DNA of 56,945 nt from Nitrososphaeria archaeon (GTDB lineage: Archaea; Thermoproteota; Nitrososphaeria; JACIWG01), in assembly GCA_029776125.1 (NCBI GenBank), contig JARVJS010000014.1, positions 1 through 56,945 of the forward strand. Direction: 5' to 3'. The position numbers and the translations under genes were made by a program. Shown in pieces: positions 19,929 through 39,481 of this stretch (position 1 is the first letter of the stretch; each line of letters begins with the position of its first letter). The notes beneath the pieces are model-generated. The model saw only the letters and a program-made list of their open reading frames with translations, searched no databases and had not been told where the DNA came from.

Positions 19929-19932
19929 CGGA

Positions 19933-21191: not shown

Positions 21192-21266
21192 GCAGGATCC
21201 GAAGGATGCTGCAGCAGAGGACTAGAGGATAAGGGGATGGGAGGCGGGGGTTTGGGCTTGTTTTGG

Positions 21267-21650: not shown

Positions 21651-21693
21651 AAATTTTTAAATAAAAGCCCATACATTATTTACTTGAACAAAG

Positions 21694-22242: not shown

Positions 22243-22633
22243 GCCTCCCCCAAACACACTCTTTTTTCAACACATCCAACTTAAGCATGTGCTTTAACAG
22301 TCCAATCTAGGCCTAGTCCAAAGACACGTTCTCCTAAACAGTGTAACCAAGACTATCTACTATACATCCATGCTATTTATTCATTTGTTGATGCAAATGT
22401 TCTGTCAACGTAATCAGAGAAAACTCTGCTAACACGAACATCGTCTCTCATCGTAGGCTTCCCACATCCATAGCTGATACCAGCTTAAAGTAAACAAACT
22501 AGATAAAAAATCTTACACTAAATCCTGTCAGCCACACCATTCAACAAAAGTCTCTCGCACACTAGCCTAAGCACATGCTTCAGCAGCCCAGCCTAGATTC
22601 AGCAGAATCCTGCACCGCCTAACCATACCTAAA

Positions 22634-23344: not shown

Positions 23345-23417
23345 GGGGTTCAGTAATCAATCTTGTTTAATAAGCTTTTTTCTAAAAGAATGTTTAGGAT
23401 TCCAGTTTTTATGGCCT

Positions 23418-25610: not shown

Positions 25611-26038
25611 TACCGTTTGAGTAGAAAACTTATTTAAACATTATGGTCCTCCAGCCAAAGAAGACCTTCGCCCCAAAACATCCTACAGCCTCCCATCCCA
25701 TGCCAGCCAACTCCCTCCCCCCTCCATGGTCGACACCATCGTCTCTGCAGCCTTCAGCAGCGTTTACCCTTTAACGGTGGAGGAAACAAAAGTTTCGTCC
25801 CAAACCAAGCTAAAGCACATGCTTTAGCAGGCCCAGCCCAGACTCCGCCAAACCTAACTTCCTAAGCGTGCCTAAACATTCTCATTGTAAGATTACATAA
25901 TGCTAAAGCAAGAGACCTTTCAACCATACTCTTTTACATGCATGTTATCGCAAGAGACGACAACGTCCCCGAAATACTTGAGATTATACCTTCACCGGAG
26001 GAGGTTAGTGACATGGTACGCGAGAAGGGAGAATAGCA

Positions 26039-26795
26039 TCATAGCCTGTCTTCTCGCCCTTTAGGCCGCATACTCGGCGACCTCAAAACTTTTATCCCAT
26101 ACAATTTTTCAAAAACTTCTGTCAAGACCTCCTTTTTACGTTTGACAAGCTCCCTTCTCGCCTCCGGATCCGGGATGCGCCTCAAAATTTTGTCGAACGC
26201 GTGGGAGGGCGCAAACTCTATGACAAGCCTAAACCTCACCGCCTCCACATCATCTCCGCAAACTTCTGGAACCGCAGCCTTCACAACATCCCCCCGTATA
26301 CGATAGAAAAGTTCTTTGGAAAACTTTGCCTCCTGCAGACCATACACTTTCAAGCTCTCGAGATAAAGTTCGCCTAAAAAGGCATAAAACAAGCGTTCGC
26401 CTTCCCCGCATCCGGCGACAAGCTCTCGAACAAAAGGACTTCTCACCAGACTTGACACAATATCCTCTGACGCAACCTTGTCAAAAGAAGATGGTGACGG
26501 AATCACCCCCCTCCCCACCTCATCCAGTCTCCCAATCTCCTGCGGCAGCATAGCAGCCTCCATAAGCCGCATGTTCTCCGGCACACTGACACCTCCTAGG
26601 ACGTCAAAGCCTTTTTCAGTCAAAACATATTTTCCCCCAGCATCCTTCTCAACCAAACCCATGCCCCGCAACTCTCTCAGATGCTCGCAAACCGTTTTCT
26701 CAGACACCCTCAAAAAACGCCTTAACTCACTCCAACTCCGCCCCCCCCTCCAAAAGAAAACCTAGCAAACGCCTTTTCTGCCCACTTAAAATCAT
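26039..26795 (-). CDS. Winged-helix (ArsR/MarR-like) transcription regulator, reading frame interrupted at a C8 homopolymer (26741-26748)
   Basis: The ATG at 26795 gives MILSGQKRRLLGFLLEGG, then the frame is lost in the G8 run (minus strand). Removing one G joins it to RSWSELRRFLRVSEKTVCEHLRELRGMGLVEKDAGGKYVLTEKG, a complete wHTH. The ORF track only reports 26039..26713. Confidence 0.6.
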
Positions 26796-27176
26796 ACTCT
26801 ATCAGCCCACCCAAACATACAATCTCACATAAGCCTTCTCCAGCCTTAAAAGGAGAAAAGGGGGACAGCATACTCACCTCAGCCAGCAGCCCAAACGGAG
26901 GCCGCGGCAGCCTGCACCCCCACATGCTCTTCGCCTGCCCCCAACATTTTTTGAAAAAAAACATGATCTTCTGTCTCCCTTTTAAGCGCCTGGACGGGAC
27001 CGTGTTGGAATGGAATGTTGTATGCGCATGTTTGCCCAAGATGCGGTTTCGAAAACGTTGGACGCAGGCCTCTGATGGTCCTCGTGTGCAGGAAACGCGG
27101 TGTGCCAGAAGACTTTTGAACACTTTCTCTTCCTCTTTTATATTATGTTCTGTACCAAATGTAGGCTGCACAGTCT

Positions 27177-28187
27177 ATGCCTTCTGGATCCTTGAAGATG
27201 CTGGAAGACTATCTGGAGGATATAGTGTTAAACAGTCTACCGTACACTGTCGCGAAACTGAAGGAGAACCCGACTGTCAGCGAACCGGAAGCAAAAAATG
27301 TTGTCGGCAAAGTCTGCGAACTCAAGACACTGCTGGCCCTGTACACGATCCTATCGGAAATCATGCCAGAAGACGGCATACTCTACATAGAATACAACAG
27401 CCAATATAATAGGAGAAAATGGAGGCTCAAAGAGAAGCCCAACGACGAAGGCGCAGACATCCAGATCGCGTCAAAAAATGTTCTAGTAGAAGTTGAGGTC
27501 AAGCACCGCCTCAGCGGCTACACGACAGAAAAAGAGTTCACCGAAAAAATTCTGCCAAAATATCATCCGCGCGCCAAAAAAATCCTTGTACTCTACACCG
27601 GCTACACGGAGCAAGAAAAAGAGAACCTCAGAAGACTCTGCAACAGACACGACGTCACCCTGATCGTGGACAAGCCAATCGAATACAGGAAACGCGAGGG
27701 CGCCTACGAATTCAACCCAGCAAGCTTAAGCATGCAGGCCGCCAACCTCGCAACCGTGGCAACAAAACTATCCTACCACCTAAAAAAACACCTAACCACC
27801 GCCACAGCAACAAAACAACCATCTTCTTCTTCCTATACAATACATAGTAATCTATACTATACAATGGACTATAGTAAAACGGATTACAGTAGAACATTCT
27901 ATAACAGCAGCGTTGACCATATAATGTTTGATTGGGTGATGTTTGATTGTATTATGTTTGATGATATGATGTTCTGTTCTGATGCAATGTTGTGTTCTGG
28001 TATAATGTCATGTTCTAGTGTCATGTCCTATGCTGGCATCATGTTGTCGACTGTTCCATGGGACACCCTGTCCCCAGACGGTATAATGTATTATGCTAGC
28101 ATAAAATGTTATGGGGCGAGAATGTTGGAGGAAACTGGTGCCTGCGGAGGCTGCAAAAAAACCGATTTTTTTGACATAATATTATAA
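27177..28187 (+). CDS. Hypothetical protein with PD-(D/E)xK nuclease-like core and an unusual Met/Cys-rich periodic C-terminal tail
   Basis: 336 aa. GADIQIASKNVLVEVEVKH fits D-x(n)-E-x-K. From about residue 245 the sequence becomes 5-6-residue periods starting with Met (MFDWV MFDCI MFDDM MFCSDA MLCSGI MSCSSV MSYAGI). It is unclear whether the tail is translated. Confidence 0.35.
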   Translation: MPSGSLKMLEDYLEDIVLNSLPYTVAKLKENPTVSEPEAKNVVGKVCELKTLLALYTILSEIMPEDGILYIEYNSQYNRRKWRLKEKPNDEGADIQIASKNVLVEVEVKHRLSGYTTEKEFTEKILPKYHPRAKKILVLYTGYTEQEKENLRRLCNRHDVTLIVDKPIEYRKREGAYEFNPASLSMQAANLATVATKLSYHLKKHLTTATATKQPSSSSYTIHSNLYYTMDYSKTDYSRTFYNSSVDHIMFDWVMFDCIMFDDMMFCSDAMLCSGIMSCSSVMSYAGIMLSTVPWDTLSPDGIMYYASIKCYGARMLEETGACGGCKKTDFFDIIL

Positions 28188-28428
28188 TACACTGTTCCAG
28201 CGGAGGGGAAAATGTATCGGGGGCGAAAAAAGAGAGTAGACTAGGCTGAAGAAGCTTGCGTGATGTTCACCCGACCACCCTTCCCCTGGCCTGCGGAAGA
28301 AGACGGGGAAGCCGGACTCTCCCACCACCTTCTTTCACACGCTGGAAAAAGGTGGAGAAAAAGGAGTGTGGAAGGAGAAGGGGAAAACAGTTAAATGGGG
28401 GCGGAAAAACATTCTGCCACAGAAGAAA

Positions 28429-29058
28429 ATGTCATCCCGTCCAGAAGACGGTAGAAAGGCGTCCGAAAAGATCCTGTCCACAGCATCAGCAAACGGACCT
28501 AAATCTTCTGCCAAAAGAGAAAACAGGATTGTTGGAAAAACCATTCTGGCAGCAGCAACCGTGTTCGGAATCCTCCTCCTAACAGGACTTCTGATGGAGG
28601 CAACGGCACCAGAAACTTTGACAGCATCGAAAACCGCTGCCGCCACCAGCACTGTAGCCGAAACAGTCTACGGGGCAGGAGAACCTGTCATCGCAGGAAA
28701 CCTAGCGTACACGGTCGAAAAAGTTTACACAGCAGACCGGATCGCGTTCGCGAAAGCAGACGGCGTATACGTGATAGTCTCCCTCACAATAGAAAACGTT
28801 GGCAAAGAAACCGTCACAGTAGACAGTGAAATGCTAAAAATAGAGGACGAACAGGGCCGAACATACAGTGCAAACGATGACGCAACAGTCTTCCTCGACC
28901 GCGGCTTAATCGTGAGACAGTTTCAGCCAAACATCCCCTCCAGAGCAGACATCGCATTCGACGTCCCCAAAAACATAGGCAGAATCAGCCTAAGAGTCTA
29001 CTCTGACAAAAACTCCAAAGAATACAAGCTCATAGACCTGGGCACAGCAGCAGACTAG
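28429..29058 (+). CDS. Membrane-anchored DUF4352-like (Ig-fold) protein
   Basis: I prefer the ATG at 28429 (MSSRPEDG); the ORF track starts at the GTG at 28366. TM helix ILAAATVFGILLLTGLL. The segment YTVEKVYTADRI...VYVIVSLTIENVGKETVTVDSEMLKIEDEQGRTYSA...ADIAFDVPKN matches the DUF4352 pattern. Confidence 0.6.
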   Translation: MSSRPEDGRKASEKILSTASANGPKSSAKRENRIVGKTILAAATVFGILLLTGLLMEATAPETLTASKTAAATSTVAETVYGAGEPVIAGNLAYTVEKVYTADRIAFAKADGVYVIVSLTIENVGKETVTVDSEMLKIEDEQGRTYSANDDATVFLDRGLIVRQFQPNIPSRADIAFDVPKNIGRISLRVYSDKNSKEYKLIDLGTAAD

Positions 29059-29070
29059 GCCAGCTTACAC

Positions 29071-29988
29071 TCAACACTCCCCCAAAGGATAGAACATGTA
29101 ATATTCTGGAGCAACATTAACCATGCCATAGCCTGGCGGAAAACATTTCCAAAGCTTACCCGGATCATCCTTGACTTCCACAACAACCTTAGGCCGCCAC
29201 CTTCCAATAGACTCCCTCATCCCCTCCAAAACCATAAGCTCAGCACCCTCCACGTCAACCTTAACAAAATCGATCCTCCCAACATCCTCCAGCAGAAAAT
29301 CAAGTGGAACAGCTGGAACAGCATAAAACCTTTCCCCAACATCGAAGACAACACTATTGTGTCCCATGCTCCTTCCAACCTTCAACCTAACCTCCCCAAA
29401 CCCATTCCATGCGGCAACATTGTATAAGACAACATTATCTAGCCCGTTAACGCGAACATTTTTAGCCAAAACAGAGAAGGTGCGCGGACAAGCTTCCACC
29501 GCAACAACCTTAGCATGCGGAAAACGTTTAGCAACCTGCACAGCATACTTTCCAACATGAGCTCCAACGTCAACAAACACGCCACCATCACCCAAGCAGA
29601 CAAGATCCCACATCCACCTCTCGAAATCGTCTGACACAATAAACAGGCTTTCGACGTCAACAGCGTGGAAAACACATTCTCCAACCCTAACCCTTGCACC
29701 AGAAACAATCCTGTCACCCAACCCCCTAACATGCTCCAGGAAACCAGCCTTCTCCACAAAAAGATTCGGCACACTAGCAAACAGTGCAGCAAAAAAGATT
29801 CTAACAGCATCCAGAACACCCTGTCCCCGGAAAACGAACCCGAACCTGCGGAAAAAATATTCCAGGAAACCCCTCAAACTGTGCCCACGAACCCCTCTAC
29901 CAGACATCATCATACAAGACGTCCACCGTTTAAAAGGAGAACATGGGAGACAGTGGACCAGAAGAGGGGAGCAGGCTTCCCAGAACAT
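29071..29988 (-). CDS. FkbM-family SAM-dependent methyltransferase
   Basis: VFVDVGAHVGKYAVQVAKRF (SAM-binding motif I), VVAVEACPRTFSVLAKN, and FVKVDVEGAELMVLEGM (the typical FkbM C-terminal block). The true start is probably internal (MMMSGRG). Confidence 0.75.
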   Translation of the reverse strand: MFWEACSPLLVHCLPCSPFKRWTSCMMMSGRGVRGHSLRGFLEYFFRRFGFVFRGQGVLDAVRIFFAALFASVPNLFVEKAGFLEHVRGLGDRIVSGARVRVGECVFHAVDVESLFIVSDDFERWMWDLVCLGDGGVFVDVGAHVGKYAVQVAKRFPHAKVVAVEACPRTFSVLAKNVRVNGLDNVVLYNVAAWNGFGEVRLKVGRSMGHNSVVFDVGERFYAVPAVPLDFLLEDVGRIDFVKVDVEGAELMVLEGMRESIGRWRPKVVVEVKDDPGKLWKCFPPGYGMVNVAPEYYMFYPLGEC

Positions 29989-30273
29989 TGTCCAGCCAGG
30001 AAGCCTAAACCCCTCTTACGTGGGCTCCACCGTCCAACACCCTCCACTTGGGAGGTTAGCTGGACGGCTTCAACGCCCACGTTTCGGCCCCACCGGGCCA
30101 ACCCCGCACCAGCCTCCCACCCCATGCAGGAAGCATGGGAGAAGAGGAGACTGGAAACGGAGCTCCCATTTCGGGATCGTCAGAGAGGGAATTCCAACTT
30201 AACCCATCCTCTCAACACACTAGTCCACCCAAACCTTCCCCCAAAAAATGGTGGAAAAAGAGGGGAGAGAAAA

Positions 30274-30783
30274 CTAGTCCCACCAGAACCTGTACACAAA
30301 ATACATTCCACTGTCTTCGAAGACACCGAACTCGTCCGCGGAAGCCTTCAACGCAAGCCCATCAAACAGTTCAGCCAACACCAGAAAATCTATTCTTTCA
30401 CCGGAACCAAACTTTGGGACCACAACATATATGACCCTCGACCCCTCGTTTCCCACAACAAACTTGTGCAGCCGACAGCCTCCTCCCATCCGCTGGACAG
30501 CACGGTTTACTTCGGAAACAAGCTCAGTAAGCCCCTCGACAGTGAAACCATTATAGCAGCCAGCACGTTCAACAAACGCGAGCGCCTCCTCCGGAGAAAG
30601 CTCGACAAGAAAGTTGGATGAAACCCTGTCAAGCTGCAGCGCAAGATCAACCCTTCTAGAGAAACCGCTTCCATCTTGGCTGAAGCACATTCTTCCTCCA
30701 AAAAGATGCCGTCTACCGTCCAAGGTCAGCTGCCAGAACATGCGGTCTAACAGTATCAAGCATGCGCTCGAAAACACCATCAT
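30274..30783 (-). CDS. Hypothetical protein (operon member)
   Basis: 169-aa frame on the operon strand. Its 5-prime end overlaps the upstream gene by 70 nt, so the start is probably internal. No motif recognised. Confidence 0.3.
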   Translation of the reverse strand: MMVFSSACLILLDRMFWQLTLDGRRHLFGGRMCFSQDGSGFSRRVDLALQLDRVSSNFLVELSPEEALAFVERAGCYNGFTVEGLTELVSEVNRAVQRMGGGCRLHKFVVGNEGSRVIYVVVPKFGSGERIDFLVLAELFDGLALKASADEFGVFEDSGMYFVYRFWWD

Positions 30784-31423
30784 TCCATCTCCTTACACCA
30801 TCGTATGCCCTGGAAACGGTTTCAAGAAACTCTGCCAGCACATCGGCTGCAGAGGATACAACATTAAACAGTCGACTAAGGTCAACCGCGCTGGAGACAA
30901 CAAGAGAATAGAGAGTTCCATCGGATACAAGATGCAGCAGCCTAACATTATCTGACGAGAAAACAATCTCCGAAACCCGAACACGCTCGAGCACGCCAAA
31001 AGACTGTGAAACAAGAAACTTGGCCCTAGAACATTTAATGCTAGAACAGTCTCCAGAAAACCTCCTGCGCAAGACAACAGGCTTATAGAGTCTAACACGC
31101 CTGCTGAGGCGACAGAGTACAACGAAAGCGTCCCTAACCTGGCTCCTAACACATTCAGCCAAAACCTCACCCTTTCCCCTGACAAGGTTCAGGAAACCGA
31201 ACAGGTCAACCTTGCCGTCGACAGTACTAAAATCCTTTTCAACAAAAACAATCTTCAGCCCACCATCTTCCTCGAACATGACAGCCCGTCTAGAGAGAGA
31301 AAAAGGCTTAAGGTACGAGAAACATTCTACAACCTTCGCTGCCACATTCCTGTTCAAAGCATGCACGTCACACGACTGGAGCATGCCAAAAAGTCTCCTA
31401 GCATCAGAGTCCATCAGGAGCAC
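30713..31423 (-). CDS. Hypothetical protein, paralogue A of 31675..32397
   Basis: 236 aa. Shares VECFSYLKPF / VECFSHLKPF and GEVLAECVRSQVRDAFVVLCRLSRRVRL / GAVLSRYVRPLVRRAFYDLCMLAGRIRL with the 240-aa protein. Conservation between the two copies supports that it is coding. Confidence 0.45.
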   Translation of the reverse strand: MLLMDSDARRLFGMLQSCDVHALNRNVAAKVVECFSYLKPFSLSRRAVMFEEDGGLKIVFVEKDFSTVDGKVDLFGFLNLVRGKGEVLAECVRSQVRDAFVVLCRLSRRVRLYKPVVLRRRFSGDCSSIKCSRAKFLVSQSFGVLERVRVSEIVFSSDNVRLLHLVSDGTLYSLVVSSAVDLSRLFNVVSSAADVLAEFLETVSRAYDGVRRWNDGVFERMLDTVRPHVLAADLGR

Positions 31424-31638
31424 CCTTCCAAGAGAACCTTCCTCGCATCACTTTCACATCGTGCCACAATGCTGCCGCAGACCGGACAACGGTACTCTTG
31501 GTCGTCGACGTCAACAGACTCAATACCATAGTATTCGCCCACACCATCTCTTACAGTGAAGCCGCCGCGCACAAACTCTGTCGCAGAATACTCGAGCTCC
31601 ACAATAAGGCTGCCGCAGAAAGGACACTTTCCCACCAC
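31414..31638 (-). CDS. Small zinc-ribbon protein
   Basis: 74 aa with CPFCGS ... CPVCGS. The gene sits between the two paralogues and overlaps the downstream start by 10 nt. Confidence 0.5.
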   Translation of the reverse strand: MVGKCPFCGSLIVELEYSATEFVRGGFTVRDGVGEYYGIESVDVDDQEYRCPVCGSIVARCESDARKVLLEGCS

Positions 31639-31674
31639 CTAACACCCCCAAAAAAGGGAAACAGGGGAAACATT

Positions 31675-32397
31675 CTAAAAGAGTTCCCTGGAAACACGGT
31701 ACGGTTCAACAGTCAACTCCATCTGCTCCAGAACCCGACCATTCTCCTCAAACACTGGAGAAAGCTGCCTCCTCAGCTGCTCAGCAAGTTCAGCGATGAC
31801 GTCAAACAAAAGAGGAAACCGTGCCACCACATCACGCAAATCATAGCATAATCCAATATTGAAAACGTACACCACATCATTCGACAGCACGTAAAAGGTT
31901 CCAGGATCAGACGCATTCAACATGACAGAGTCAACGGAATCCAACCTTATCACAGGAAGCTGCTTACTTGACACAGAAACATACTTGAGCCCACGGTCAG
32001 GAAAGCCCCTGGACAAAACCTTTTCAGCAGAAGCCTCCTCAACAAGCCTTATCCTCCCAGCAAGCATGCAAAGATCATAGAACGCTCTCCTAACAAGCGG
32101 CCTAACGTACCTGGAGAGGACAGCACCATGTTTCCTGACAACGTCAAAAAACTCTTTCCCCAAAACCTCTCCCACAATAAACCTTGTACCATAAACATAG
32201 ATCCTCCGGTCAACCCATGTTCTAACAAAATAGTGTAGGACAACACCATCTTCTTTGACTGGAACAATGAACGGCTTAAGATGCGAGAAACATTCCACAA
32301 TCTTGTCCAAAACCTTCTTCCTGTAAACGCTCAAGTCAACTTCCAAGAGCATACGTTTCACGCGTCTAACATCGTCTTCCAACATAATTTCCCCCAA
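31675..32397 (-). CDS. Hypothetical protein, paralogue B of 30713..31423
   Basis: 240 aa. See the shared blocks listed for paralogue A. Confidence 0.45.
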   Translation of the reverse strand: MGEIMLEDDVRRVKRMLLEVDLSVYRKKVLDKIVECFSHLKPFIVPVKEDGVVLHYFVRTWVDRRIYVYGTRFIVGEVLGKEFFDVVRKHGAVLSRYVRPLVRRAFYDLCMLAGRIRLVEEASAEKVLSRGFPDRGLKYVSVSSKQLPVIRLDSVDSVMLNASDPGTFYVLSNDVVYVFNIGLCYDLRDVVARFPLLFDVIAELAEQLRRQLSPVFEENGRVLEQMELTVEPYRVSRELF

Positions 32398-32408
32398 AAA
32401 AGGGTGGT

Positions 32409-32678
32409 CTAGTCGAAGTTGAACAGCAGAAAGTATGCTGGAGCAACAACAAGCAGCCCTATCGCACCAAACACTGCAGCATAAACTTTGACGGGATCAA
32501 ACACTGGAGGCATAAAGCATCCAAGCAGTCCGTCGACAACAAACCATCTTGGAAAATACTTGTCTGGAGCAAGGAAAACATCGAATGAAAAGAGTATACT
32601 GTAGGCGGACAAGACGGCGATGGCAGCGGTTACAAGGAGAACGTTAGCCTTAACCTTCAATGCAACCATCCCCTCCAA
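32409..32678 (-). CDS. Small membrane protein (2-3 TM helices)
   Basis: 89 aa, strongly hydrophobic (LLVTAAIAVLSAYSILFSF, AAVFGAIGLLVVAPAYFLLF). Lies directly downstream of the ParB-like gene. Confidence 0.4.
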   Translation of the reverse strand: MEGMVALKVKANVLLVTAAIAVLSAYSILFSFDVFLAPDKYFPRWFVVDGLLGCFMPPVFDPVKVYAAVFGAIGLLVVAPAYFLLFNFD

Positions 32679-32717
32679 AAAACGGTAAGCCGGTGGAAAG
32701 AAAAGGAAATCCAGGGT

Positions 32718-34199
32718 TCAGACAACATTGTCCTTGACTAGAAAAGTTTTCCCGCAGAAGGGGCATCTTACAACAAGATCCTCCTTAAACTTAAGCAGCC
32801 TCTCGAGCTCCGCAACCCTTGCCCTTAGAACATCAATTTCTTTTCTAGCGTAAGCCAAGTCCGTTTCCACGGAAACAGTGTCACGTGCAGCCTCCCTAGC
32901 CTTCCTTATCTCCCACAGCGCATCATCCAAGCTCATGACGTTAACAAGCTCAACAATCCTACGCTTCTCCTCCTCACTAAAGTCTCCCTTAACAAATTCT
33001 TCGGCGAGACGGAACGCTATACCTCTTCTGGAGGGAATGAGGCCGTTGAAGATGAAACCGTGTTTGGCGTTAAGTTCATCAAACTTCCTGCTCATGAACT
33101 CTTCTGCAGCCTTAAGCGCCTGCTTCGGATCAATGCCGCGGTACACTTGATCAACAACCATCTTGGTCTCGCTGCTGGTAAGCCCCTTTTCCCTGACAGC
33201 GTATGCGATCTCCTTAACAGCATCAGGCTTATCCTTTATCTTAAGAAGCTCCTCCGCATGCGATGGGGTGAGGAAGCCCCTGGGCTTGGAGACAGAAGCC
33301 CCCTTATCCAGCCCACCTTCTCTGACACCGTCTACGGCAACAAAATTGTGCCCTGGGGCACAATTTCCCGCTCCAGTCTCCTGCAACGGTACAGAATTTA
33401 GGTTAACCAAATTGTGCGGTAACGCACAATTTTCCGCCCTAGTCTGTCCAAAGTAGTCTCCAACAGAATTTTGCGCTGGCGCAAAATTTCCTGCTCCAGC
33501 ATCATGCGATGGCACAGGATTTAGGTTAACCAAATTTTGCCGTACGGCAAAATTTTCTGCCCTAACCTGCTCCAAACCATCTCCGTCAGCCTTCCTCCTG
33601 TCAATCTCCCTCTGAAGCCTCCTCTCGAAGTCTTCTTCAAGCATTTTCTGCACCTCCTCCGGAAGGTCAAGAAACTGTATCCTGCGGACAACGTAGCTGC
33701 AGTCTTTCCCAATCTTGTTGGCGAGGTCGGTGACCGAACCCCAGCCGAACTCTTCAACATACCTTTTGAAGGCTCTAGCCTCTTCCATTGGACTAAGCTG
33801 CTTACGCTGAACATTTTCAACCAACGCTATCTCGAAAGCGTCCCTGTCATCCAGTCCATCGTGTACAATACACAGCGCCTCTTCCACGCCAAGCGTCTTC
33901 AACGCATTATATCTTCTCCATCCGCAGACAAGCTCGTACCCGCTTCCAGCCTTCCTGACAGTAAGCGGGTTAAGAAGCCCCTTCCTTCGAATACTTTCAG
34001 CAAGCTCGTCTATCCTGCCAAGAGATGACCTCAAAAGAAACCTTGGAGCACTGATTTCCGAAAGCCTAAGATATCTGATCTGAGATGAAACAGCCTTCTG
34101 CATACAGCATCCTCCAAAAAAGGTGGAAAAGACTCCGTCACCATTCCCGCATACTGTTGGGAAAGTAGAAGGCGACAGCCAGAACAAGGCATACTCCAA
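32718..34199 (-). CDS. ParB/Srx-domain protein with HTH, an internal 41-aa tandem repeat, coiled coil and C-terminal zinc-ribbon-like end
   Basis: ParB N-terminal blocks are LRLSEISAPRF, GLLNPLTVRKAGSGYELVCGWRRYNALKTLG and ALVENVQRKQLSPMEEA. HTH: LANKIGKDCSYVVRRIQFLDLPEEVQ. The C-terminal end has RCPFCGKTF. The likely start is the ATG at 34103 (MQKAVSS). Confidence 0.7.
   Translation of the reverse strand: MEYALFWLSPSTFPTVCGNGDGVFSTFFGGCCMQKAVSSQIRYLRLSEISAPRFLLRSSLGRIDELAESIRRKGLLNPLTVRKAGSGYELVCGWRRYNALKTLGVEEALCIVHDGLDDRDAFEIALVENVQRKQLSPMEEARAFKRYVEEFGWGSVTDLANKIGKDCSYVVRRIQFLDLPEEVQKMLEEDFERRLQREIDRRKADGDGLEQVRAENFAVRQNLVNLNPVPSHDAGAGNFAPAQNSVGDYFGQTRAENCALPHNLVNLNSVPLQETGAGNCAPGHNFVAVDGVREGGLDKGASVSKPRGFLTPSHAEELLKIKDKPDAVKEIAYAVREKGLTSSETKMVVDQVYRGIDPKQALKAAEEFMSRKFDELNAKHGFIFNGLIPSRRGIAFRLAEEFVKGDFSEEEKRRIVELVNVMSLDDALWEIRKAREAARDTVSVETDLAYARKEIDVLRARVAELERLLKFKEDLVVRCPFCGKTFLVKDNVV
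33343..33555. repeat. Four 22-24-bp palindromes in a ~123-bp tandem duplication inside the ParB-like ORF (candidate parS-like centromere)
   Basis: P1 33343-33366 AAATTGTGCCC-TG-GGGCACAATTT. P2 33409-33432 AAATTGTGCG-GTAA-CGCACAATTT. P3 33467-33488 AATTTTGCGC-TG-GCGCAAAATT. P4 33532-33555 AAATTTTGCCGTACGGCAAAATTT. A TTAGGTTAACCAAAT spacer precedes P2 and P4. Confidence 0.9.
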
Positions 34200-34465
34200 A
34201 AATCATTCCTAAAACAAACAAGTCCATCCGCTTGTCCCCCAAAAAACTTGTCCAAAAAAAGTTTCAAGCAAAAAAAGTGTGGAGAAAAATGGACAGGATC
34301 TAGATTTCGACAACCTCTCCATTTAACTTTGGCTTAGGGTTGACCTTCCCGCGATTCTCTCTATTGCAGCATCCTTTCTAATATCATTCTTTCACACTAG
34401 GGAGGAGAAGATAGCGCATTCTAGAAAATAAAATTTATATAATTGGAAATCCAGAAAATGTCTTG

Positions 34466-34577
34466 GCTGACGTGAGGTTGGGTTACTCCCGTTTGAGGAG
34501 GGCGGGGTTTAACATTTTTTCAATATGTTTGGGGAAACGGTGTTGGGCGGCGAATAACATTTTTTGCTCACGTCAGC
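34466..34577. promoter_or_regulatory. 11-bp perfect inverted repeats (GCTGACGTGAG / CTCACGTCAGC) bracketing a 90-bp segment directly upstream of the 828-aa surface-protein gene
   Basis: Read directly. The bracketed segment holds two direct repeats, GGGCGGNGNNTAACATTTTTT, at about 34500-34520 and 34545-34565. The gene start is at 34594. Confidence 0.6.
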
Positions 34578-34593
34578 TGAGAGAGTGTAGAAA

Positions 34594-37080
34594 ATGAGTC
34601 CAACACCATCAAAAAAGTTGAATAAGGTCGTTGGAACGCTAGAAGTGTTTATACTTCTTCTGCCAATTTTTGCTGGAGCATCTTCTCTTACACCAGTAGG
34701 CTATGCGAAGGCCATGTCTTACGTTAACCAGGACATTTTAGTGGACACTGTGTGGGACAAAAGTGGAAGCCCATATATTATACAGAAGAGTATCATGGTA
34801 GCAGAAGGTGCCACGTTGAAGATTGAGCCGGGCGTGGAAGTCGATGTCATCGAAAAGTCTACGATAACAGTGTACGGTAAAATTGTTGCAGGATCTGTTG
34901 GAGGAGAAGCTGTTAACGTTAAAGGCTGGGGTAAGCCTGGAACATTCTCTGTCCAAGTCAAAGGCGGAAATCTTCACATAGAAAATGCTGTGATAGAAAA
35001 TGTTCTTATGACGTTAGAGGATGCTGACGTGAAACTTTCTAGGCTGAAGACAGGGTCTTTTACGATAGACGTGTTCAACAGGTCCATGTTGGCAGCCGCG
35101 GGACTTGAAGCCGAAAGCCTGAAAGTCGGTGGAGGAAAATGTGGTATAGCATACTCTATCCTGTCCATAGAAAATTCGGAGGTCAAGTCAATCGAGGTTT
35201 CAGGATACGCTGGAGTTTACTGTTCGACTGTTAGACTGTCGGATGTCCAGAGCCAGACGATGAAAGTGGCTGGAAAGCCGCCATACTGGGTAGGCGGTGT
35301 GATGGGAGTCGACGTCTACAATTCCACAGTGTACTTTAACATGGTTTATGCTGGCAAAGTCGACATGAGCGGATATGGCGGCTTCAGGCACTCTTTCATA
35401 AAATTCGATGGCGGTAGGGTGGGAGACATTATCATGCCGCTTGACGTCTACAATTCTACTGTAGAAGTCTATTCTGTGGAAGCGGATACAGTAAACTTCT
35501 GTCCCGGTACGATGGTGCGTTCGAAAACCTTTTTCGAGAACGTTGTCGCGAACAAGATAATGTTCAACGGAAGCAAGTACTGGGGTGAAATCGCTTCCAA
35601 TTCGAACATTACATTCAACCGCATCGTGTGCAGGACATTGGCTGTTTCAGGCATGTCGGGAGACAGTGGAATCGACGTGAGAAACAGTACTATAAAGATT
35701 GTTGGGTCCACAGTCGCATACGGTTCAGGAGTGTACGTCAGGTGCCTCACGAACTCGGTTCTGGAAATAAGTGGATCAAACGTTTACGGAAACAGTCCAT
35801 ACGGCCTCTATGTTGGATCATCGTCTGGCATGATTATAGGCAAAAATCCTGTCGTTAAAGTGGACGGAAACTGGTGGGGTGACGCTAGCGGACCAACCAA
35901 TCCAAAACTTAATCCGGGCGGAAAAGGCGACACCATCATAGTTCCAGACAATACTACAATATCCAAGTGGCTTACTTCTCCAGCGGGAGGAGCTGTGATG
36001 CCAAGGTCTAGGCTTGAGCCAGCGAATCCTGTTATAGCAAGAGGAAGTCCAGCATCTTTTATGGTAGCAGCTGAAGGAAGCAGGATAGCCGCATGCTTCA
36101 TGGACTTCGGAGACGGTTCTGTGTCAGGCTGGACACGTGACCTGCCAGTAGTCCACGTGTATAATGCGGTTGGAGAATATCTGGTTACAGCGTACACGGT
36201 GCACGAGAACATGCTTTTAACTAAAGCATCTGCTTTGGTCAGGGTGGCGTCACCTCCTTCCGTTAAAATAGTGTCTCCTGCAAACGGTACACTATTAAAA
36301 GATAACATGGTGAAAGTGGATGTTAACGTAGAGGATCCGGTTGGGATAATATTGTGCCAGATTAAAGTGGACGATTTTACTAGAACCGTGAAACCGAATA
36401 CTACAAGATACGCTGGAACAGTCTCTTTGGGTCCTATAGCGGACGGGTGGCATCTTGTCGAGGTCAATGCTACAAACGTGTTTGGGCTATCATCTTTGGA
36501 TAACGTTGTTGTCGGAACAGACACTATCACCCCATGTATAGAAATAGAAGCTCCTCCAGCAACAAGCGGAACCTTCACTTTGAAATGGAATATAACAGAC
36601 AATTTTAGCGGCGTGAACCCTGACAGCGTCAGAATATCGTGTGGAAGAATATATTTTCCACGTGCGGTCGTCGGAAGCATTAACCTCACAATTGATGCCA
36701 CAACAAACATTATAGTTTATGCTGCAGACTATGCTGGAAACACTATTGAAGCAAACTTTACGATAAAGTATGTTGGAAAAACTTCTACAGCTACTGCAAC
36801 AGCCTCTCAGACTGAAACTTCTTCTTCCACTGAACCGTGTTCCAGCGAATCTTCTACTATACCATCGTATCATGGGCAGGAAGGCGAATACGATTGGATA
36901 AACTATGTTGTACCCTTCGTTATCCTGGCAGCAGTTGTAGCTGCGGTCGCGTTAGCTGTCGTCTATAGGTTCAGGAGAAAGAGGGAGGTTGCCGAAATTA
37001 AGGCGATTGAAGGTGAAACCGTGGAAGGCGGGCAGGCTGGAGCAGGCGGGGCAGGGGGCGGAGGAAATGAAGCTGTTTGA
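34594..37080 (+). CDS. Secreted, membrane-anchored surface protein with beta-helix repeats, PKD domain and Ig-like domains
   Basis: 828 aa. Signal-like N-terminus (VFILLLPIFAGASS), a long repetitive beta-helix-like region, and the PKD signature FMDFGDGSVSGW...VHVYNAVGEYLVTAYTV. Also a DNFSGV Ig-like module, a Ser/Thr-rich stalk, a C-terminal TM helix (VVPFVILAAVVAAVALAVVY) and a basic/Gly-rich tail. Confidence 0.7.
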   Translation: MSPTPSKKLNKVVGTLEVFILLLPIFAGASSLTPVGYAKAMSYVNQDILVDTVWDKSGSPYIIQKSIMVAEGATLKIEPGVEVDVIEKSTITVYGKIVAGSVGGEAVNVKGWGKPGTFSVQVKGGNLHIENAVIENVLMTLEDADVKLSRLKTGSFTIDVFNRSMLAAAGLEAESLKVGGGKCGIAYSILSIENSEVKSIEVSGYAGVYCSTVRLSDVQSQTMKVAGKPPYWVGGVMGVDVYNSTVYFNMVYAGKVDMSGYGGFRHSFIKFDGGRVGDIIMPLDVYNSTVEVYSVEADTVNFCPGTMVRSKTFFENVVANKIMFNGSKYWGEIASNSNITFNRIVCRTLAVSGMSGDSGIDVRNSTIKIVGSTVAYGSGVYVRCLTNSVLEISGSNVYGNSPYGLYVGSSSGMIIGKNPVVKVDGNWWGDASGPTNPKLNPGGKGDTIIVPDNTTISKWLTSPAGGAVMPRSRLEPANPVIARGSPASFMVAAEGSRIAACFMDFGDGSVSGWTRDLPVVHVYNAVGEYLVTAYTVHENMLLTKASALVRVASPPSVKIVSPANGTLLKDNMVKVDVNVEDPVGIILCQIKVDDFTRTVKPNTTRYAGTVSLGPIADGWHLVEVNATNVFGLSSLDNVVVGTDTITPCIEIEAPPATSGTFTLKWNITDNFSGVNPDSVRISCGRIYFPRAVVGSINLTIDATTNIIVYAADYAGNTIEANFTIKYVGKTSTATATASQTETSSSTEPCSSESSTIPSYHGQEGEYDWINYVVPFVILAAVVAAVALAVVYRFRRKREVAEIKAIEGETVEGGQAGAGGAGGGGNEAV

Positions 37081-38935
37081 GCATACAATGGTCAATATCT
37101 TCCTGTTTGTGGCAATAGTGTCAGTTGTCACATACTATCCTTTGCCGATTCCACACTTTTCTAACTTCATGTCATATACGGAGTTCACTGGAATGCCTAG
37201 CACGAGTCTTCCACCAGATTTCGGTGAGAAACTGACAGAGTTCATTGACATGTGTGTATGGTGGCCTACAATTTTTGTGAAAATGTTGACCGGGGCAGCA
37301 AGTTGGCCGTATTCTGCAACGATGCAACTTGGTGTAGTCTATCTTAGTTGGATAATTTTTATTGCTGCAAGCGGTGTACCAGACCTAGATTCTGAAGGCG
37401 GCAACATACTAAGCGTTGTATTGTATCTTCCTCTAACATTCCTCCTATGGGCTCTGAAGAAGATTGCGCCTGAACCATTCAGGCACAGGGGTGCCGCGCA
37501 CAGCATATTTTATGCACTACTCGCGTCAGCAGTAAACTTTCTTCTGATGTACTTACTCTATGTTTTTGTCGTGCGAGCGATTGGCGTAAACACATTCATT
37601 GGAGGGTTGCTGGAAACCATGGCTATTTTTTCGGCTTCACTTTTGCCACTATGCTATCTAGGGCACATTCTGTTTGACACTTCAACCGAGTCCGGGGTCA
37701 GACTATTCTATCCTCTTTCGAACAAAGTCTTCTATGGAAAATTTTGGCCAGTGTTCGCTTCCCCGCTTCTACCATTCGCATACTTTATTATTGTACCATT
37801 CATTCCCAGGCAGGAGACTGCAGTCTACTGGACACAATTTTACAGCCTGTTTCCGCCAGCGTTCGCTCTATCGCTTGCACTTATACCGACGTCGATAGCT
37901 GTTAGTACATTGACTAGGAAGCCGGGAAAGTCTAAGGTAGGCAGTCTTCCTAGGACAGTGGACACAATTTTACAAGCCGATTACCCGCATGGTTCAGAGG
38001 ACACGGTGTCAGAAAGTTTGCAGGACAAAATGTTGGAAGAACGTAGGAGGAGTCTGGAGAAAGCGGAGGCTGAAAGGAGACAGGGGACTGCAATGAAGAT
38101 TATAATGGAGAAGGTTTTGGAGACTGCGAAGGACAGTGGGAAAGGCGAAGAATCTTTGCTGGAGAAAAGGAAAGCTGGAGGCCGGAAAAATAATGTTGCA
38201 CTAGAGTCCATTTGGTTCCAGGAAAAGGATTTGGAGAAAGTGTGGGCGTTCTATCTCCAGAAGAACGGTGGATCCGTTAACAGAGCGTTAGAAGAGTTTA
38301 AGCTGAAGGCTGAAGCGTTCAAGAAAACGAGTGAGGGGAAAGGGTTAGCTGAGCAAATTGACACTGTTGTAAAAGAGATCGTCGACGAAATAGCAAAAAA
38401 GAAAGTATTTGAAGAGGAAATTTATAGGAAAGCTAAAGAGGAATTGTCTAAAATGGAAAGTCAGCCTATAAAACAGGAGTATGCGACACCGAAACCTGTT
38501 GAACAGATACAAAACCTGTTGAACAGAAAACCAAAACCTGTTGAACAGATAAAGGATTCAAAAAATCTGCCGGCAATTAGGTCACCAGATTTGAAAAGGA
38601 TCCAAAAGGTTTGGAAAGTTGACGTTAAAGACATGCGACCAGAAAGACCTAAAGAATTGGTAGAAGGTGGATTTTATGAGGACGCGTATGTGTCAGCGTT
38701 CTCATTACTTGAATATGTGTTAAAGAAGAATATGAAAATGATTTATGGCGACTTCCGTGCCGTACTTGACAAAATGGTGGAAGAAGAAAAAATTTCTTCT
38801 ACACTAAAAGAAAGAATCAGCCAATATTATGATATAAGAAACGGTGTGGTACACTCTGGCAGGAAAGTTTCTTTTAAAGAAGTTCGCGAATTCGTTAACT
38901 TCGTGTACGATGTGTTAGAGGGTCAAGTACACTAG
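37067..38935 (+). CDS. Fusion protein with N-terminal YdjM/DUF457-type membrane domain, charged coiled-coil linker and C-terminal HEPN domain
   Basis: I prefer the ATG at 37067, which follows GGAGGAA; the ORF track starts at 36989 inside the upstream gene. The polytopic N-terminus has VPDLDSEGG and FRHRGAAHSIFYAL, which are DUF457 hallmarks. About 230 aa of Lys/Glu-rich linker follow. The C-terminal FYEDAYVSAFSLLEYVLKK...YYDIRNGVVHSG carries the Rx4H HEPN motif. Confidence 0.6.
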   Translation: MKLFEHTMVNIFLFVAIVSVVTYYPLPIPHFSNFMSYTEFTGMPSTSLPPDFGEKLTEFIDMCVWWPTIFVKMLTGAASWPYSATMQLGVVYLSWIIFIAASGVPDLDSEGGNILSVVLYLPLTFLLWALKKIAPEPFRHRGAAHSIFYALLASAVNFLLMYLLYVFVVRAIGVNTFIGGLLETMAIFSASLLPLCYLGHILFDTSTESGVRLFYPLSNKVFYGKFWPVFASPLLPFAYFIIVPFIPRQETAVYWTQFYSLFPPAFALSLALIPTSIAVSTLTRKPGKSKVGSLPRTVDTILQADYPHGSEDTVSESLQDKMLEERRRSLEKAEAERRQGTAMKIIMEKVLETAKDSGKGEESLLEKRKAGGRKNNVALESIWFQEKDLEKVWAFYLQKNGGSVNRALEEFKLKAEAFKKTSEGKGLAEQIDTVVKEIVDEIAKKKVFEEEIYRKAKEELSKMESQPIKQEYATPKPVEQIQNLLNRKPKPVEQIKDSKNLPAIRSPDLKRIQKVWKVDVKDMRPERPKELVEGGFYEDAYVSAFSLLEYVLKKNMKMIYGDFRAVLDKMVEEEKISSTLKERISQYYDIRNGVVHSGRKVSFKEVREFVNFVYDVLEGQVH

Positions 38936-39465
38936 AAACTGATTCTTAATCATAACAAATATACGATGAACTAACATTTTTCAAATGAATTTTAGTATCA
39001 CTCTTTGAGTTGATGAACATTTTAAAGGAAAAATGTCTGCCACATTTGGCACGAATTCAAACACACTCTGTAGCCAAAAAAGACTAGAGTTATATAGAAA
39101 TTAGAACTAAATATTTTTTCTCAAGCTAGATACGAAACAAGTGAAGCATGATTTAAATGCTCGTGGCTTATAAAGCATGTAGACTTAGGCACACCAGAAA
39201 AATCGAAGACATCAAAAAGATATGATCCAAGATCAGAATAGCTCTCTCAAAATTCATATTCGCTCGCCTCTGTTGAGGTTCCTACCAGCCTAGATAATTG
39301 GGTAAAACTTAGGTAAAAGTAGATAAAAAAACTGGAAAAATAAAACATAAAGAAAATATCAAAATAAAATTTTCTTTGACAACGTTGGTTAAAGACCAGA
39401 TTTCTAAACGCCTAAATTTATAAAAAAGTTTGATCCGAAAGACGGGCGCCAAACAAAAAACTTTT

Positions 39466-39481
39466 ATCCCTTCCCCGGCGT
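39466..39481 (+). repeat. attR core (ATCCCTTCCCCGGCGT), displaced tRNA-Ser 3-prime fragment
   Basis: Identical 16-mer at 16485-16500. Host-like AT-rich core genes resume downstream. Confidence 0.7.

Follow-up and report, generated by a model that had tools for sequence, protein, structure and literature searches.

What does a ParB protein do in an archaeal mobile element that codes for no ParA? The question is raised by a cluster of seven genes in a contig of a Nitrososphaeria metagenome-assembled genome (MAG; contig JARVJS010000014.1, of which the 56,945-nt stretch analysed is referred to here as the window). The original prediction considered this cluster to be a candidate partition, DNA-modification or defence module. 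Our favoured interpretation, at about even confidence, is that it contains a cassette by which an archaeal mobile element, integrated in a tRNA gene, anchors or partitions its DNA, with an orphan bacterial-type ParB and no ParA.

Organisation of the element and of the cluster

The host MAG has a GC content of 30% and harbours a 23-kb element at 48% GC, inserted in a tRNA gene (Table 1). The first copy of the direct repeat that bounds the element (16485-16500) lies at the 3′ end of this tRNA (16401-16499). The seven ORFs that were first reported, all on the minus strand, were recovered at the same coordinates in the ORF list. GenBank gene calls are shorter, with 461 aa for ParB (ATG at 34103), followed by 86, 236, 73, 233 and 149 aa and by 280 aa for the methyltransferase, and include an additional, doubtful 56-aa ORF at 29910-30080. 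The tight spacing attributed to the cluster holds for the first six genes, whose junctions are of 39 nt or less or overlap, but not for the pair formed by the 56-aa ORF and the methyltransferase gene, which a 193-bp gap separates from the 149/169-aa gene. T-tracts follow the stop codon of the 149-aa gene, and similar T6G5 motifs are also found between cistrons.

Table 1. Positions of the element, its genes and the candidate ParB sites in the window.
Feature	Position	Strand	Basis
Integrated element with the cassette	16485..39481		GC step from 30% to 48%, repeat, tRNA, integrase
16-bp direct repeat ATCCCTTCCCCGGCGT	16485-16500 and 39466-39481		Element ends
Tyrosine integrase	16555-17730	+	
FkbM-family SAM methyltransferase, 280-305 aa, probably outside the module	29071..29988	-	Methyltransf_21, TIGR01444
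169-aa ORF (149 aa in GenBank), lineage-specific, unit membership uncertain	30274..30783	-	Homologue in L002 only
Paralogue A, 236 aa, family shared with B	30713..31423	-	Paralogy, family search
Acidic four-Cys zinc ribbon, 74 aa	31414..31638	-	Pfam zinc-ribbon matches
Paralogue B, ~240-aa family (240 aa)	31675..32397	-	Paralogy, family search, AF2 model
TM89, 89-aa two-TM membrane protein, conserved parB neighbour	32409..32678	-	Hydropathy, homologues
parB, orphan Spo0J/Noc-type, 461 aa	32718..34103	-	Pfam, TIGR00180, PDB 1vz0, orthologue alignment
parB, longer ORF, 493 aa, possible TTG start at 34199	32718-34199	-	
parS-like palindrome 1, AAATTGTGCCCTGGGGCACAATTT	33343..33366		
parS-like palindrome 2, AAATTGTGCGGTAACGCACAATTT	33409..33432		
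parS-like palindrome 3, GAATTTTGCGCTGGCGCAAAATTT, one mismatch in the outer pair	33466..33489		
parS-like palindrome 4, AAATTTTGCCGTACGGCAAAATTT, perfect 24-mer	33532..33555		
Remnant, 3′ end of a 105-aa gene	34300..34348	-	Window/L002 identity ends at 34348

A second MAG (contig L002) has the whole stretch between ParB and the 149-aa gene, both included, at 99.87% identity and preceded by a different flank. The cluster runs on upstream of parB in that copy, while of the 105-aa gene that, intact, directly precedes parB in L002 and L073 (two proteins aligned), the window retains just the final ~49 nt. The remnant marks a recombination or deletion breakpoint just upstream of parB. Consequently, the description of the cluster as led by ParB is valid within the window, where parB comes first, but this start is secondary.

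Comparison with related loci indicates that the seven genes are not conserved together in other elements. A second element lineage (lineage 2) shares with the cluster only ParB, TM89 and two genes of the ~240-aa family to which paralogues A and B belong, and the only further gene common to the two elements codes for a bPH protein, at one locus (L064). Gene order also varies: in lineage 2 the paralogues precede parB, and in the window they follow it. Co-occurrence, which the original prediction proposed to check, is found for ParB, TM89 and the ~240-aa family, whereas the FkbM methyltransferase and the 149/169-aa protein never recur; because these last two are not kept in relatives, the seven genes do not form one conserved module. 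The 149/169-aa protein has no match in Pfam, PHROG, PADLOC, NCBIfam or PDB, and its only homologue is that of the near-identical L002, with no conservation outside the lineage of the window element. The conserved core consists of parB with its predicted in-gene parS, TM89 and a pair of genes of the ~240-aa family, to which the zinc ribbon is linked.

A Spo0J/Noc-type ParB with candidate sites inside its own gene

ParB is predicted to be a canonical CTP-clamp protein of the Spo0J/Noc type that binds CTP. It exceeds the Pfam cut-offs for ParB_N (54.5 bits, cut-off 26.3) and HTH_ParB (49.9 bits, cut-off 22.6), as well as that of TIGR00180 (104.2 bits, cut-off 58.45), and matches the Spo0J structure 1vz0 in the PDB (E 4.5e-27), GWRRYNA and ENVQRK aligning with GERRYRA and ENLQRE. 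The CTP motifs GxxRxxA and ENxxR, present as GWRRYNA and VENVQRK, are invariant in 16 orthologues, except for a Y/F exchange in one; the orthologous parB genes are 54-62% identical. The best NCBIfam match is nucleoid_noc (TIGR04285, E 1.5e-38), but its score of 132.6 bits is far below the curated cut-off of 315. The C-terminal half gave no Pfam match, and the C-terminal 190 aa none to PF23552, the C-terminal dimerisation domain of bacterial ParB, which is absent from the precomputed Pfam list of the ParB clade and present in the bacterial matches. These 190 aa form a clade-specific helical domain with a coiled coil and a CPFCG knuckle, and the modelled domain has no fold match in the PDB.

Four 24-bp palindromes of the form AAATTKTGC-N6-GCAMAATTT lie within parB, in the region coding for the linker, where the array occupies a 123-nt tandem duplication (33338-33583). 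The pattern AATTKTGCN6GCAMAATT has four matches in the window, all of them in parB, with 0.23 expected by chance, and none of 100 shuffles contained four. All nine distinct orthologous parB genes examined contain either a single palindrome of this kind or a pair, in the same place (aa ~184-216). A count of perfect 9+6+9 palindromes gave 21 for the orthologous parB genes (20.5 kb) and 38 for 922 kb elsewhere, none of the latter having the form of the parB sites. Some orthologues contain NBS-like sites (e.g., ATTTTTCCCCGGGGAAAAAT), the Noc-binding site being ATTTCCCGGGAAAT, and the parB genes of L015 and L064, which belong to one lineage, hold the canonical bacterial parS TGTTCCACGTGGAACA, in agreement with the parS consensus TGTTNCACGTGAAACA (PMC7022226). 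The site sequence co-varies with the recognition helix of ParB, as helices ending in ...RR(I/M)QFL pair with a TGC half-site (three lineages) and those ending in ...LR/QR with a T(T/A/C)CC half-site (six distinct orthologues). A cognate palindromic parS, as expected of the ParB/Spo0J family, is therefore predicted in silico, but the palindromes could equally be autoregulatory operators.

The absence of ParA noted in the original prediction was confirmed. A six-frame scan of the element (16400-39500) found no Walker A motif KGGxGK[ST], the sole P-loop-like match in a long ORF being that of a 583-aa protein, and no ParA/CbiA-type family appeared in Pfam scans of the other element proteins. In addition, the ParA-binding motif (L/F/I)G(K/R)G(L/F/I), as defined in PMC12704722, is absent from the N-terminus of ParB, where the window protein has ...SSLGRIDEL and the orthologues have LG(R/K)IEEL. 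With both the gene and the motif missing, the cluster is indeed not a canonical ParABS system.

Putative partners of ParB

TM89 has hydropathy peaks at residues ~5-30 and ~61-87 and a conserved motif, KYFP(R/Q)W..VDG..MPP..DPVKV. Its homologues (E ~1e-20) directly follow parB in L012-L016, L061, L062, L064 and L074, an arrangement seen in two of three lineages; in the L060 lineage, no TM89 follows parB. Pfam yielded no match for the 240-, 236-, 169- and 89-aa proteins.

Paralogues A and B are true paralogues (29% identity, E 1e-21), and their family comprises 44 representatives. The structure prediction and fold search proposed along with the original prediction gave a confident AF2 model for B (pLDDT 85, pTM 0.82) and, for the family, no match in PDB or BFVD, in addition to none in Pfam. 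The duplicated protein hence belongs to a real, uncharacterised family. In two lineages this family is represented twice alongside the ParB clade, since lineage 2, an otherwise unrelated element lineage, carries two family genes in the same co-oriented cluster as parB. The zinc ribbon of the 74-aa protein was confirmed by Pfam, and in L007 a homologue (E 5e-17) is encoded downstream of the closest homologue of paralogue B.

Proposed role and alternatives

A ParB with in-gene sites, a membrane protein and two paralogues, in a cluster with no ParA, most likely constitute a motor-less anchoring or partition cassette rather than a defence or DNA-modification system, and a partition or DNA-organisation role is supported. 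Of the functions contemplated at the outset, non-canonical segregation or DNA organisation is now the best-supported reading, with candidate parS sites to accompany it. In our model, ParB dimers would load at the in-gene parS sites and close as CTP-dependent clamps, and the loaded clamps would form a nucleoprotein complex on the element. TM89 would tie this complex to the cell membrane, in a Noc-like manner but as a separate anchor, and excised copies of the element could then be retained or shared out with no ParA motor involved. The two ~240-aa paralogues, probably as a hetero-oligomer, and the acidic zinc ribbon may serve as accessory or adaptor proteins of the ParB complex, while the FkbM methyltransferase and the 149/169-aa protein would be neighbouring cargo and not components. 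As no NTPase motor or other force generator was identified in the cassette, the term partition rests on analogy, and the element has no need of partition while integrated. The missing TM89 in the L060 lineage and the occurrence of the ~240-aa family without ParB elsewhere also speak against a cassette. A more specific version, which we regard as rather unlikely, is a ParA-independent machine not described before, in which an in-gene parS clamp and a two-TM anchor would be combined with a hetero-oligomer of the two paralogues, whose fold lacks any known relative, taking over the adaptor or positioning role played by ParA in bacteria, aided by the zinc ribbon. If this were true, archaeal mobile elements would use a previously undescribed ParA-independent machine for DNA segregation or anchoring.

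Other explanations have to be weighed against the anchoring or partition cassette. ParB might be a KorB- or VirB-like regulator that slides or spreads from the in-gene sites to repress or tune transcription of its own cluster and of nearby element genes, thereby acting as a switch for lysogeny or maintenance; the membrane protein and the paralogues would then be co-regulated cargo. The lack of ParA and the position of the sites inside the operon itself fit this idea, as do the several extra ParB_N proteins of related elements, paired with HTH_17 regulators, a distant relationship to KorB (PDB 8qa8, E 6e-8) and the remark that archaeal HTH-ParBs, rarely next to ParA, are unlikely segregation proteins (PMC12704722). 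Nevertheless, the analysis recognised no partner resembling KorA, the sites are outside promoters, the best matches are Spo0J and Noc and not KorB or VirB, and the tight, conserved adjacency of parB and TM89 would be left unexplained, so we consider regulation conceivable but doubtful. It is quite improbable, in our opinion, that the cluster is no functional unit at all but a chance string of co-oriented small genes, in which only parB and its parS sites work as a pair. The variable position of the paralogues relative to parB, the breakpoint right upstream of parB and the ParB-less family members agree with such a string, but the window element and lineage 2 have almost nothing in common beyond ParB, TM89 and two family members, gene spacing in the window is tight or overlapping, and the linkage between B and the zinc ribbon is kept in L007.

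The element could also be a provirus of unknown morphology, with ParB condensing the genome or recruiting it to a membrane site marked by TM89 and the paralogues acting as virion or assembly proteins. Distant members of the ~240-aa family, with no ParB within 10 kb, form tandem pairs or triplets in virus-like contigs of 48-55 kb that code for an STIV_B116-like protein, PolB and MCM, accompanied by MoxR-type ATPases and DUF2201/VWA proteins matching phage families. Moreover, the gene content of lineage-2 elements includes a tRNA and a MoxR-like ATPase, and the window element codes for two large surface proteins (PKD and beta-helix). However, searches of the element proteins, Pfam scans included, revealed no capsid, portal or packaging gene, the family has no match in INPHARED genomes, as in BFVD, and no orthologue of the ParB clade was found in IMG/VR, which makes assembly very improbable. 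As for defence or DNA modification, in which ParB would sense or regulate in the manner of DndB or DpdB and the methyltransferase would be the modifier, this part of the original prediction has to be abandoned almost entirely. It would be favoured by the co-oriented methyltransferase downstream and by weak, partial PADLOC matches to mad2 (5e-8) and MTase_II (3.5e-4), but these span only the generic SAM-binding core of the methyltransferase and the ParB_N core, respectively, and the other five proteins have no PADLOC match. The enzyme, beyond the 193-bp gap, is of the FkbM type (Methyltransf_21, PF05050, 75.6 bits vs 22.7; TIGR01444, 103.5 vs 37.7; FkbM structure 2py6, E 4.5e-4), with no Pfam match of the N6_N4_Mtase type. 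By sequence reading, it has no (D/N/S)PP(Y/F/W) motif, the only similar string being an FPPG that lies close to the C-terminus and is not part of the Rossmann core, and no homologue was found near any orthologous parB or related locus. A DndB- or DpdB-like ParB is ruled out, as Pfam, PDB and NCBIfam identify a Spo0J/Noc-type HTH protein with no Pfam match for DndB; its full HTH_ParB and its own palindromic sites therefore make it a ParB of the centromere-binding type.

Comparison with known systems

The window ParB resembles bacterial ParB/Spo0J of the type Ia ParABS systems in its ParB_N CTPase fold, CTP motifs, HTH_ParB and palindromic sites, which in one lineage are canonical. Lin and Grossman reportedly located, in 1998, the first parS found in B. 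subtilis inside spo0J, and the window element too has its sites within the parB gene. By contrast, it lacks ParA and the ParA-binding motif, the C-terminal 190 aa are clade-specific, the host is an archaeal mobile element and the sites in the window, now TTKTGC-N6-GCAMAA, have diverged. Noc, the nucleoid occlusion protein of Bacillota, is a ParB paralogue that likewise does without ParA, clamping DNA at palindromes and tying it to the membrane, and NBS-like sites are present in some orthologues; Noc, however, binds the membrane through an N-terminal amphipathic helix, a task that would fall here to a separate two-TM protein. To our knowledge, no link of the window ParB system to cell division is known.

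KorB of plasmid RK2 is also a ParB-family CTP clamp with an HTH and regulates from specific palindromes, but the window ParB scores below the cut-off of the Pfam KorB domain and the element has no KorA-like partner; RK2 still carries a ParA homologue, IncC. Among archaeal replicons, the AspA-ParB-ParA system of pNOB8 and the SegAB system are DNA segregation modules as well, but both contain a ParA-type ATPase, and the pNOB8 ParB, without HTH_ParB, requires the adaptor AspA. The orphan ParB-parS of Streptococcus pneumoniae works without ParA and with partly membrane-associated partners, RocS/CpsD (PMC7022226), although this is a chromosomal bacterial system with partners that have no relationship to either TM89 or the ~240-aa family. 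Finally, thaumarchaeal integrative-conjugative elements contain TFIIB-ParB operons (Krupovic et al. 2019, PMC6563490). The window element differs from them in having neither TFIIB nor conjugation genes, in its partners, a two-TM protein and a novel family, and in its predicted sites, but both are integrated elements of the same archaeal class with ParB operons that include non-ParA partners.

An orphan ParB on an integrated archaeal element

As read from its sequence, the cassette of seven minus-strand genes at 29071-34199 is firmly shown to centre on an orphan ParB of the bacterial type, with candidate parS sites (palindromic ParB-binding sites) inside its own gene, on an integrated archaeal element. 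Equally firm are the lack of both a ParA and a ParA-binding motif, the conservation of a membrane-protein neighbour of parB, and the recurrent company in which this ParB clade and a novel protein family are found.

The window belongs to contig JAVZPO010000001.1 of a Nitrososphaeria archaeon MAG (GCA_038881555.1). Its outer parts have about 30% GC and encode the archaeal replication genes PolD DP2 and DP1, Cdc6, Hef and PriL, and an island of 48% GC extends between ~16.4 and 39.5 kb. This island, together with the 16-bp repeats that bound it, the tRNA and the integrase (see table), places the cassette inside an integrated mobile element of ~23 kb, in which no capsid, conjugation or ParA genes could be recognised and which is a "cryptic integrated element" as this category was defined by Krupovic et al. 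2019 (PMC6563490). The tRNA, missed by ARAGORN and detected by Rfam, is probably a tRNA-Ser(CGA) with a long variable arm.

Features of parB and of the integrated element that carries it (window positions)
Feature	Position	Strand	Remarks
tRNA, intron-containing	16401-16499		Rfam 47.6 bits; its 3′ end is the repeat copy at 16485-16500
16-bp direct repeat ATCCCTTCCCCGGCGT	16485-16500 and 39466-39481		bounds the GC island; att repeats
Tyrosine integrase with C-terminal zinc ribbon	16555-17730		directly adjoins the tRNA
583-aa ORF	18177-19928	-	P-loop-like GPSGSGKD at about residue 160; no family match
Palindrome 1, 24 bp	33343-33366		linker-coding part of parB
Palindrome 2, 24 bp	33409-33432		linker-coding part of parB
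Palindrome 3, 24 bp	33466-33489		linker-coding part of parB
Palindrome 4, 24 bp	33532-33555		linker-coding part of parB

All seven open reading frames of the original prediction are present as described, and Pfam bears out its ParB_N and HTH_ParB domains, zinc ribbon and FkbM-type methyltransferase, with no match for the other four proteins (240, 236, 169 and 89 aa). The 240- and 236-aa proteins (paralogues B and A) are indeed paralogous (29% identity, E 1e-21), and, as had been claimed, no Walker-A ParA is found anywhere in the element. The 583-aa protein was considered as a hidden ParA and rejected, given the position of its GPSGSGKD motif in a protein of this length and the lack of a ParA-family match. 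GenBank gene calls start later for ParB (461 aa) and for the 169-aa protein (149 aa), and place a questionable ORF of 56 aa ahead of the methyltransferase. Six of the genes overlap or are joined by junctions of at most 39 nt; a 193-bp gap follows, and then the pair formed by the 56-aa ORF and the methyltransferase.

The motif TTTTTTGGGGG, in which a T-tract leads into a G-rich, Shine-Dalgarno-like box, is found on the minus strand at 34237, 32392, 31646, 30239 and 25551; it lies 6-10 nt 5′ of start codons in the cluster and, once, after the 149-aa gene, with no good ORF following. This last T-tract was rejected as evidence of a terminator, since the same T6G5 motif precedes internal cistrons, and a scan for bacterial promoters and terminators was uninformative, the host being an archaeon. 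Just upstream of the parB ATG, a 29-codon ORF (MDLFVLGMIFGVCLVLAVAFYFPNSMREW, 34138-34227, minus strand) with its own TTTTTTGGGGG box encodes a single hydrophobic helix and may be a leader micro-protein.

The ParB protein and the palindromes within its gene

The first ~190 residues of ParB are of the textbook Spo0J/Noc type: T. thermophilus Spo0J (1vz0) is matched with E 4.5e-27, GWRRYNA and VENVQRK being aligned with its GERRYRA and VENLQRE, and the TIGR00180 score exceeds the cut-off. Unlike bacterial ParB, the window protein has no ParA-binding motif, which PMC12704722 defines as (L/F/I)G(K/R)G(L/F/I), its N-terminus reading SLGRI, and it has a C-terminal region of its own. This conserved region of ~190 residues, which follows a variable linker, is predicted to comprise a helical domain, a helix of 50 residues and a beta-hairpin that bears an invariant CPFCG; it belongs to no Pfam family, and a Foldseek search of the C-domain model against PDB returned nothing below E 0.03. 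About 21 full-length orthologues were found (54-62% identity, all metagenomic), and the next-best matches are bacterial ParBs, over the N-terminal part only. No orthologues of the clade were detected in IMG/VR or the GTDB representative genomes, where only distant bacterial and phage N-domains appeared, nor in PLSDB (searched with the C-domain) or INPHARED. Orphan HTH-ParBs are known to occur here and there among archaea and on mobile elements (PMC12704722).

The four palindromes, with the consensus AAATTKTGC-N6-GCAMAATTT, are the only matches to this pattern in the 57-kb window, where 0.23 are expected by chance, and none of 100 shuffles reached four; the array lies within a 123-nt tandem duplication. 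Furthermore, nine of nine distinct orthologous parB genes examined, from related loci in other contigs (L012/L013, L015/L016/L064, L059, L060/L065, L061/L062, L063, L073 and L074), carry one or two palindromes that share the frame AAAT......ATTT and lie at the equivalent place in the gene (aa ~184-216). A site within the parB gene is likewise present in B. subtilis spo0J. Over all fetched sequence, the 20.5 kb of orthologous parB contain 21 perfect 9+6+9 palindromes and the other 922 kb contain 38, not one of which has the parB form. The only conserved peptide of the linker, (E/K)N(F/C/V)xxxx(N/H)(L/F), is accounted for by the palindromes, the rest of the linker being variable.

With regard to specificity, the site of L015 and L064 is AAATTGTTCCACGTGGAACAATTT, whose core TGTTCCACGTGGAACA agrees with the consensus of canonical bacterial parS, TGTTNCACGTGAAACA (PMC7022226), and is nearly equal to the M. 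xanthus site, and L061 has an NBS-like site, ATTTTTCCCCGGGGAAAAAT. When the canonical parS TGTTNCACGTGNAACA was searched for in the window with up to three mismatches, only TGTAAC iterons near the 583-aa gene were matched, and not the palindromes. Judging from the aligned orthologues, site sequence co-varies with the ParB recognition helix: YV(V/A/T)RR(I/M)QFL pairs with a TGC half-site (window, L060/L065 and L073), and YVTLR or YVVQR with a T(T/A/C)CC half-site (six distinct orthologues). There is, then, strong sequence evidence that ParB and its in-gene palindromes form a working ParB-parS pair. The lineages span sites from canonical bacterial parS to diverged ones, with helix covariants, and could show parS specificity drifting together with ParB.

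Conserved and non-conserved neighbours

The stretch that starts 245 bp upstream of parB and ends inside the 149-aa gene is 99.87% identical in L002, a sister copy on a 10.4-kb contig of another MAG, whose upstream flank is entirely different and encodes a thioredoxin, two HTH_17 proteins and two further proteins with ParB_N. At positions 1-6600 of L002 there are three ParB-like genes within 10 kb (320, 372 and 461 aa), each short one being paired with an HTH_17 protein. The identity ends at window position 34348, which falls in the 3′ end of a gene for a 105-aa protein; that gene also lies ahead of parB in L073, the locus of the closest orthologue. Consequently, the operon described as "ParB-led" does have parB as its first gene in the window, but this start is a truncation.

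In a second lineage (L012, L015, L061, L063 and L064), ParB is 55-58% identical to that of the window, and the gene order is 337 aa - 197 - MoxR-like 522 - 483 - family 230 - 153 - tRNA-Glu - family 242 - ParB_N 335 - HTH_17 - ... - ParB - (62) - TM89 - small zinc ribbon or 106 aa, "family" being that of paralogues A and B (~240 aa). The only genes in common with the window element are ParB, TM89 (the 89-aa membrane protein encoded after parB), two members of the ~240-aa family and, in L064, a bPH protein. In all five loci a tRNA-Glu(CTC) lies between the two family genes (6347-6424 in L012), and the upstream MoxR-like ATPase of 522 aa, which has phrog_26492 and phrog_20895 matches, is accompanied by a 483-aa partner; L064 additionally encodes an N6_N4 DNA methylase and RNase H.

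Homologues of TM89 (E ~1e-20) have two hydrophobic helices and, between these, the common core KYFP(R/Q)W..VDG..MPP..DPVKV; they are also encoded directly after parB in L062 and L074. In a third lineage (L060 and L065) parB is present, and TM89 and the ~240-aa family are absent from the sampled flanks. The parB of L065 (1-11570) is on a contig of 156 kb whose GC content steps from ~30% to ~47% some 5 kb upstream of the gene, so that this relative also looks integrated in a low-GC host.

Co-occurrence beyond the window, a check on the original prediction, is thus found for the ~240-aa family, whose association with the ParB clade extends to two element lineages and is not universal. It is not found for the FkbM methyltransferase, which has no homologue in any related locus; the same is true of the 149/169-aa protein, the near-identical L002 aside.

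The ~240-aa family

Word-based searches with paralogue B recovered only itself, and with a 44-sequence profile three proteins; an exhaustive profile search was needed to obtain the 44 family representatives (174-268 aa, 43 of them of at least 214 aa), most of which match the profile over nearly their whole length at ~20% mutual identity. No Pfam family or PDB sequence match was found among them, and tblastn of members against INPHARED gave none. The AlphaFold2 model of paralogue B (pLDDT 85, pTM 0.82) predicts a helical hairpin with a four-stranded meander, a unit repeated twice, and then a 45-residue C-terminal helix; Foldseek of this model against PDB and BFVD gave best E values of 0.03-0.06, with TM below 0.2. 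The isoelectric points of the members spread over 5 to 10 and do not point to DNA binding. Most members share a conserved Met-Gly start.

Ten loci place distant members on long contigs (13-55 kb) that are virus-like and encode a STIV_B116-like protein, MoxR-type ATPases, DUF2201/VWA proteins, PolB and MCM. Here the family forms tandem pairs or triplets (L004-L006 and L009-L011; for instance, L005 4628-6910 and L009 10001-11524), with one fusion (503 aa, L004) and a single copy in L008, and no ParB_N gene lies in the sampled flanks of up to 10 kb on each side. Weaker 333-aa relatives (E ~1e-14) are encoded elsewhere on the contigs of L004-L006 and L009-L011. Downstream of the closest homologue (P0003, in L007) comes a homologue of the 74-aa zinc ribbon (E 5e-17). 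Therefore, both the tandem arrangement and the link with a zinc ribbon are traits of the family as such. It is an uncharacterised family, confined to the viruses and mobile elements of archaea and notable for a confident predicted structure without PDB or BFVD neighbour and for its persistent tandem-paralogue organisation.

Possible roles of the cassette

We propose that ParB clamps would load at the in-gene sites and be tied to the membrane by TM89, with the paralogues and the zinc ribbon as accessory parts of the ParB complex, and that the excised element would in this way be held or distributed without a motor. The tie between ParB and membrane may be likened to that of Noc, although the proposed cassette would use a separate anchor, TM89.

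The main rival, a KorB-like role in which ParB would be a regulator, we consider rather unlikely, and a role of the cassette in virus assembly appears distinctly less probable still. The observation behind the original prediction is borne out and its interpretation partly supported, the part without support being defence or DNA modification: ParB is not DndB-like, PADLOC matches are to generic cores only, and the methyltransferase is of the FkbM type, without a DNA-methylase motif. Nor does the methyltransferase appear to be part of the module, as it lies behind the only sizeable gap of the cluster and is never conserved with the cassette.

What the element carries is an orphan ParB-parS pair whose partners are new and whose sites are explicit and testable. 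With exact 24-bp candidate sites in the gene, covariants of site and helix, a membrane-protein neighbour and no ParA, it offers a directly testable case, and this ParB clade could show DNA positioning or retention in archaea without ParABS.

Other repeats of the element

Arrays of a 9-bp iteron (TGTAACNNT) are found at 18379-18495, within the 3′-terminal part of the 583-aa gene, in which they are translated as SVTSVT repeats, and at 21064-21108, an inverted, intergenic 45-nt copy that is 93% complementary and 2.6 kb off. The 583-aa protein and the iterons are candidates for a replication protein and its iteron origin. A 79-nt unit occurs twice (84% identical) in the interval that separates the integrase from the 583-aa gene (17917-18133), each unit being a near-perfect palindrome of ~36+36 nt that could be an origin or recombination structure. 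Beside the inverted iteron copy there is an intergenic, hairpin-forming 25-nt repeat (CTAAACGGGCTTCGCCCGTTTAATC, three copies, 21013-21158). The 12-mer AAGCACATGCTT, an inverted repeat AAGCA-NN-TGCTT, occurs at 21627, 22283, 22569 and 25813, always at gene boundaries of the element, and is a candidate operator for one of its HTH proteins. Finally, three tandem 22-nt repeats (ACCGAAACCTGTTGAACAGATA, 38488-38551) lie in the 3′ part of a gene with a YdjM domain, close to the right end of the element, which is low in GC.
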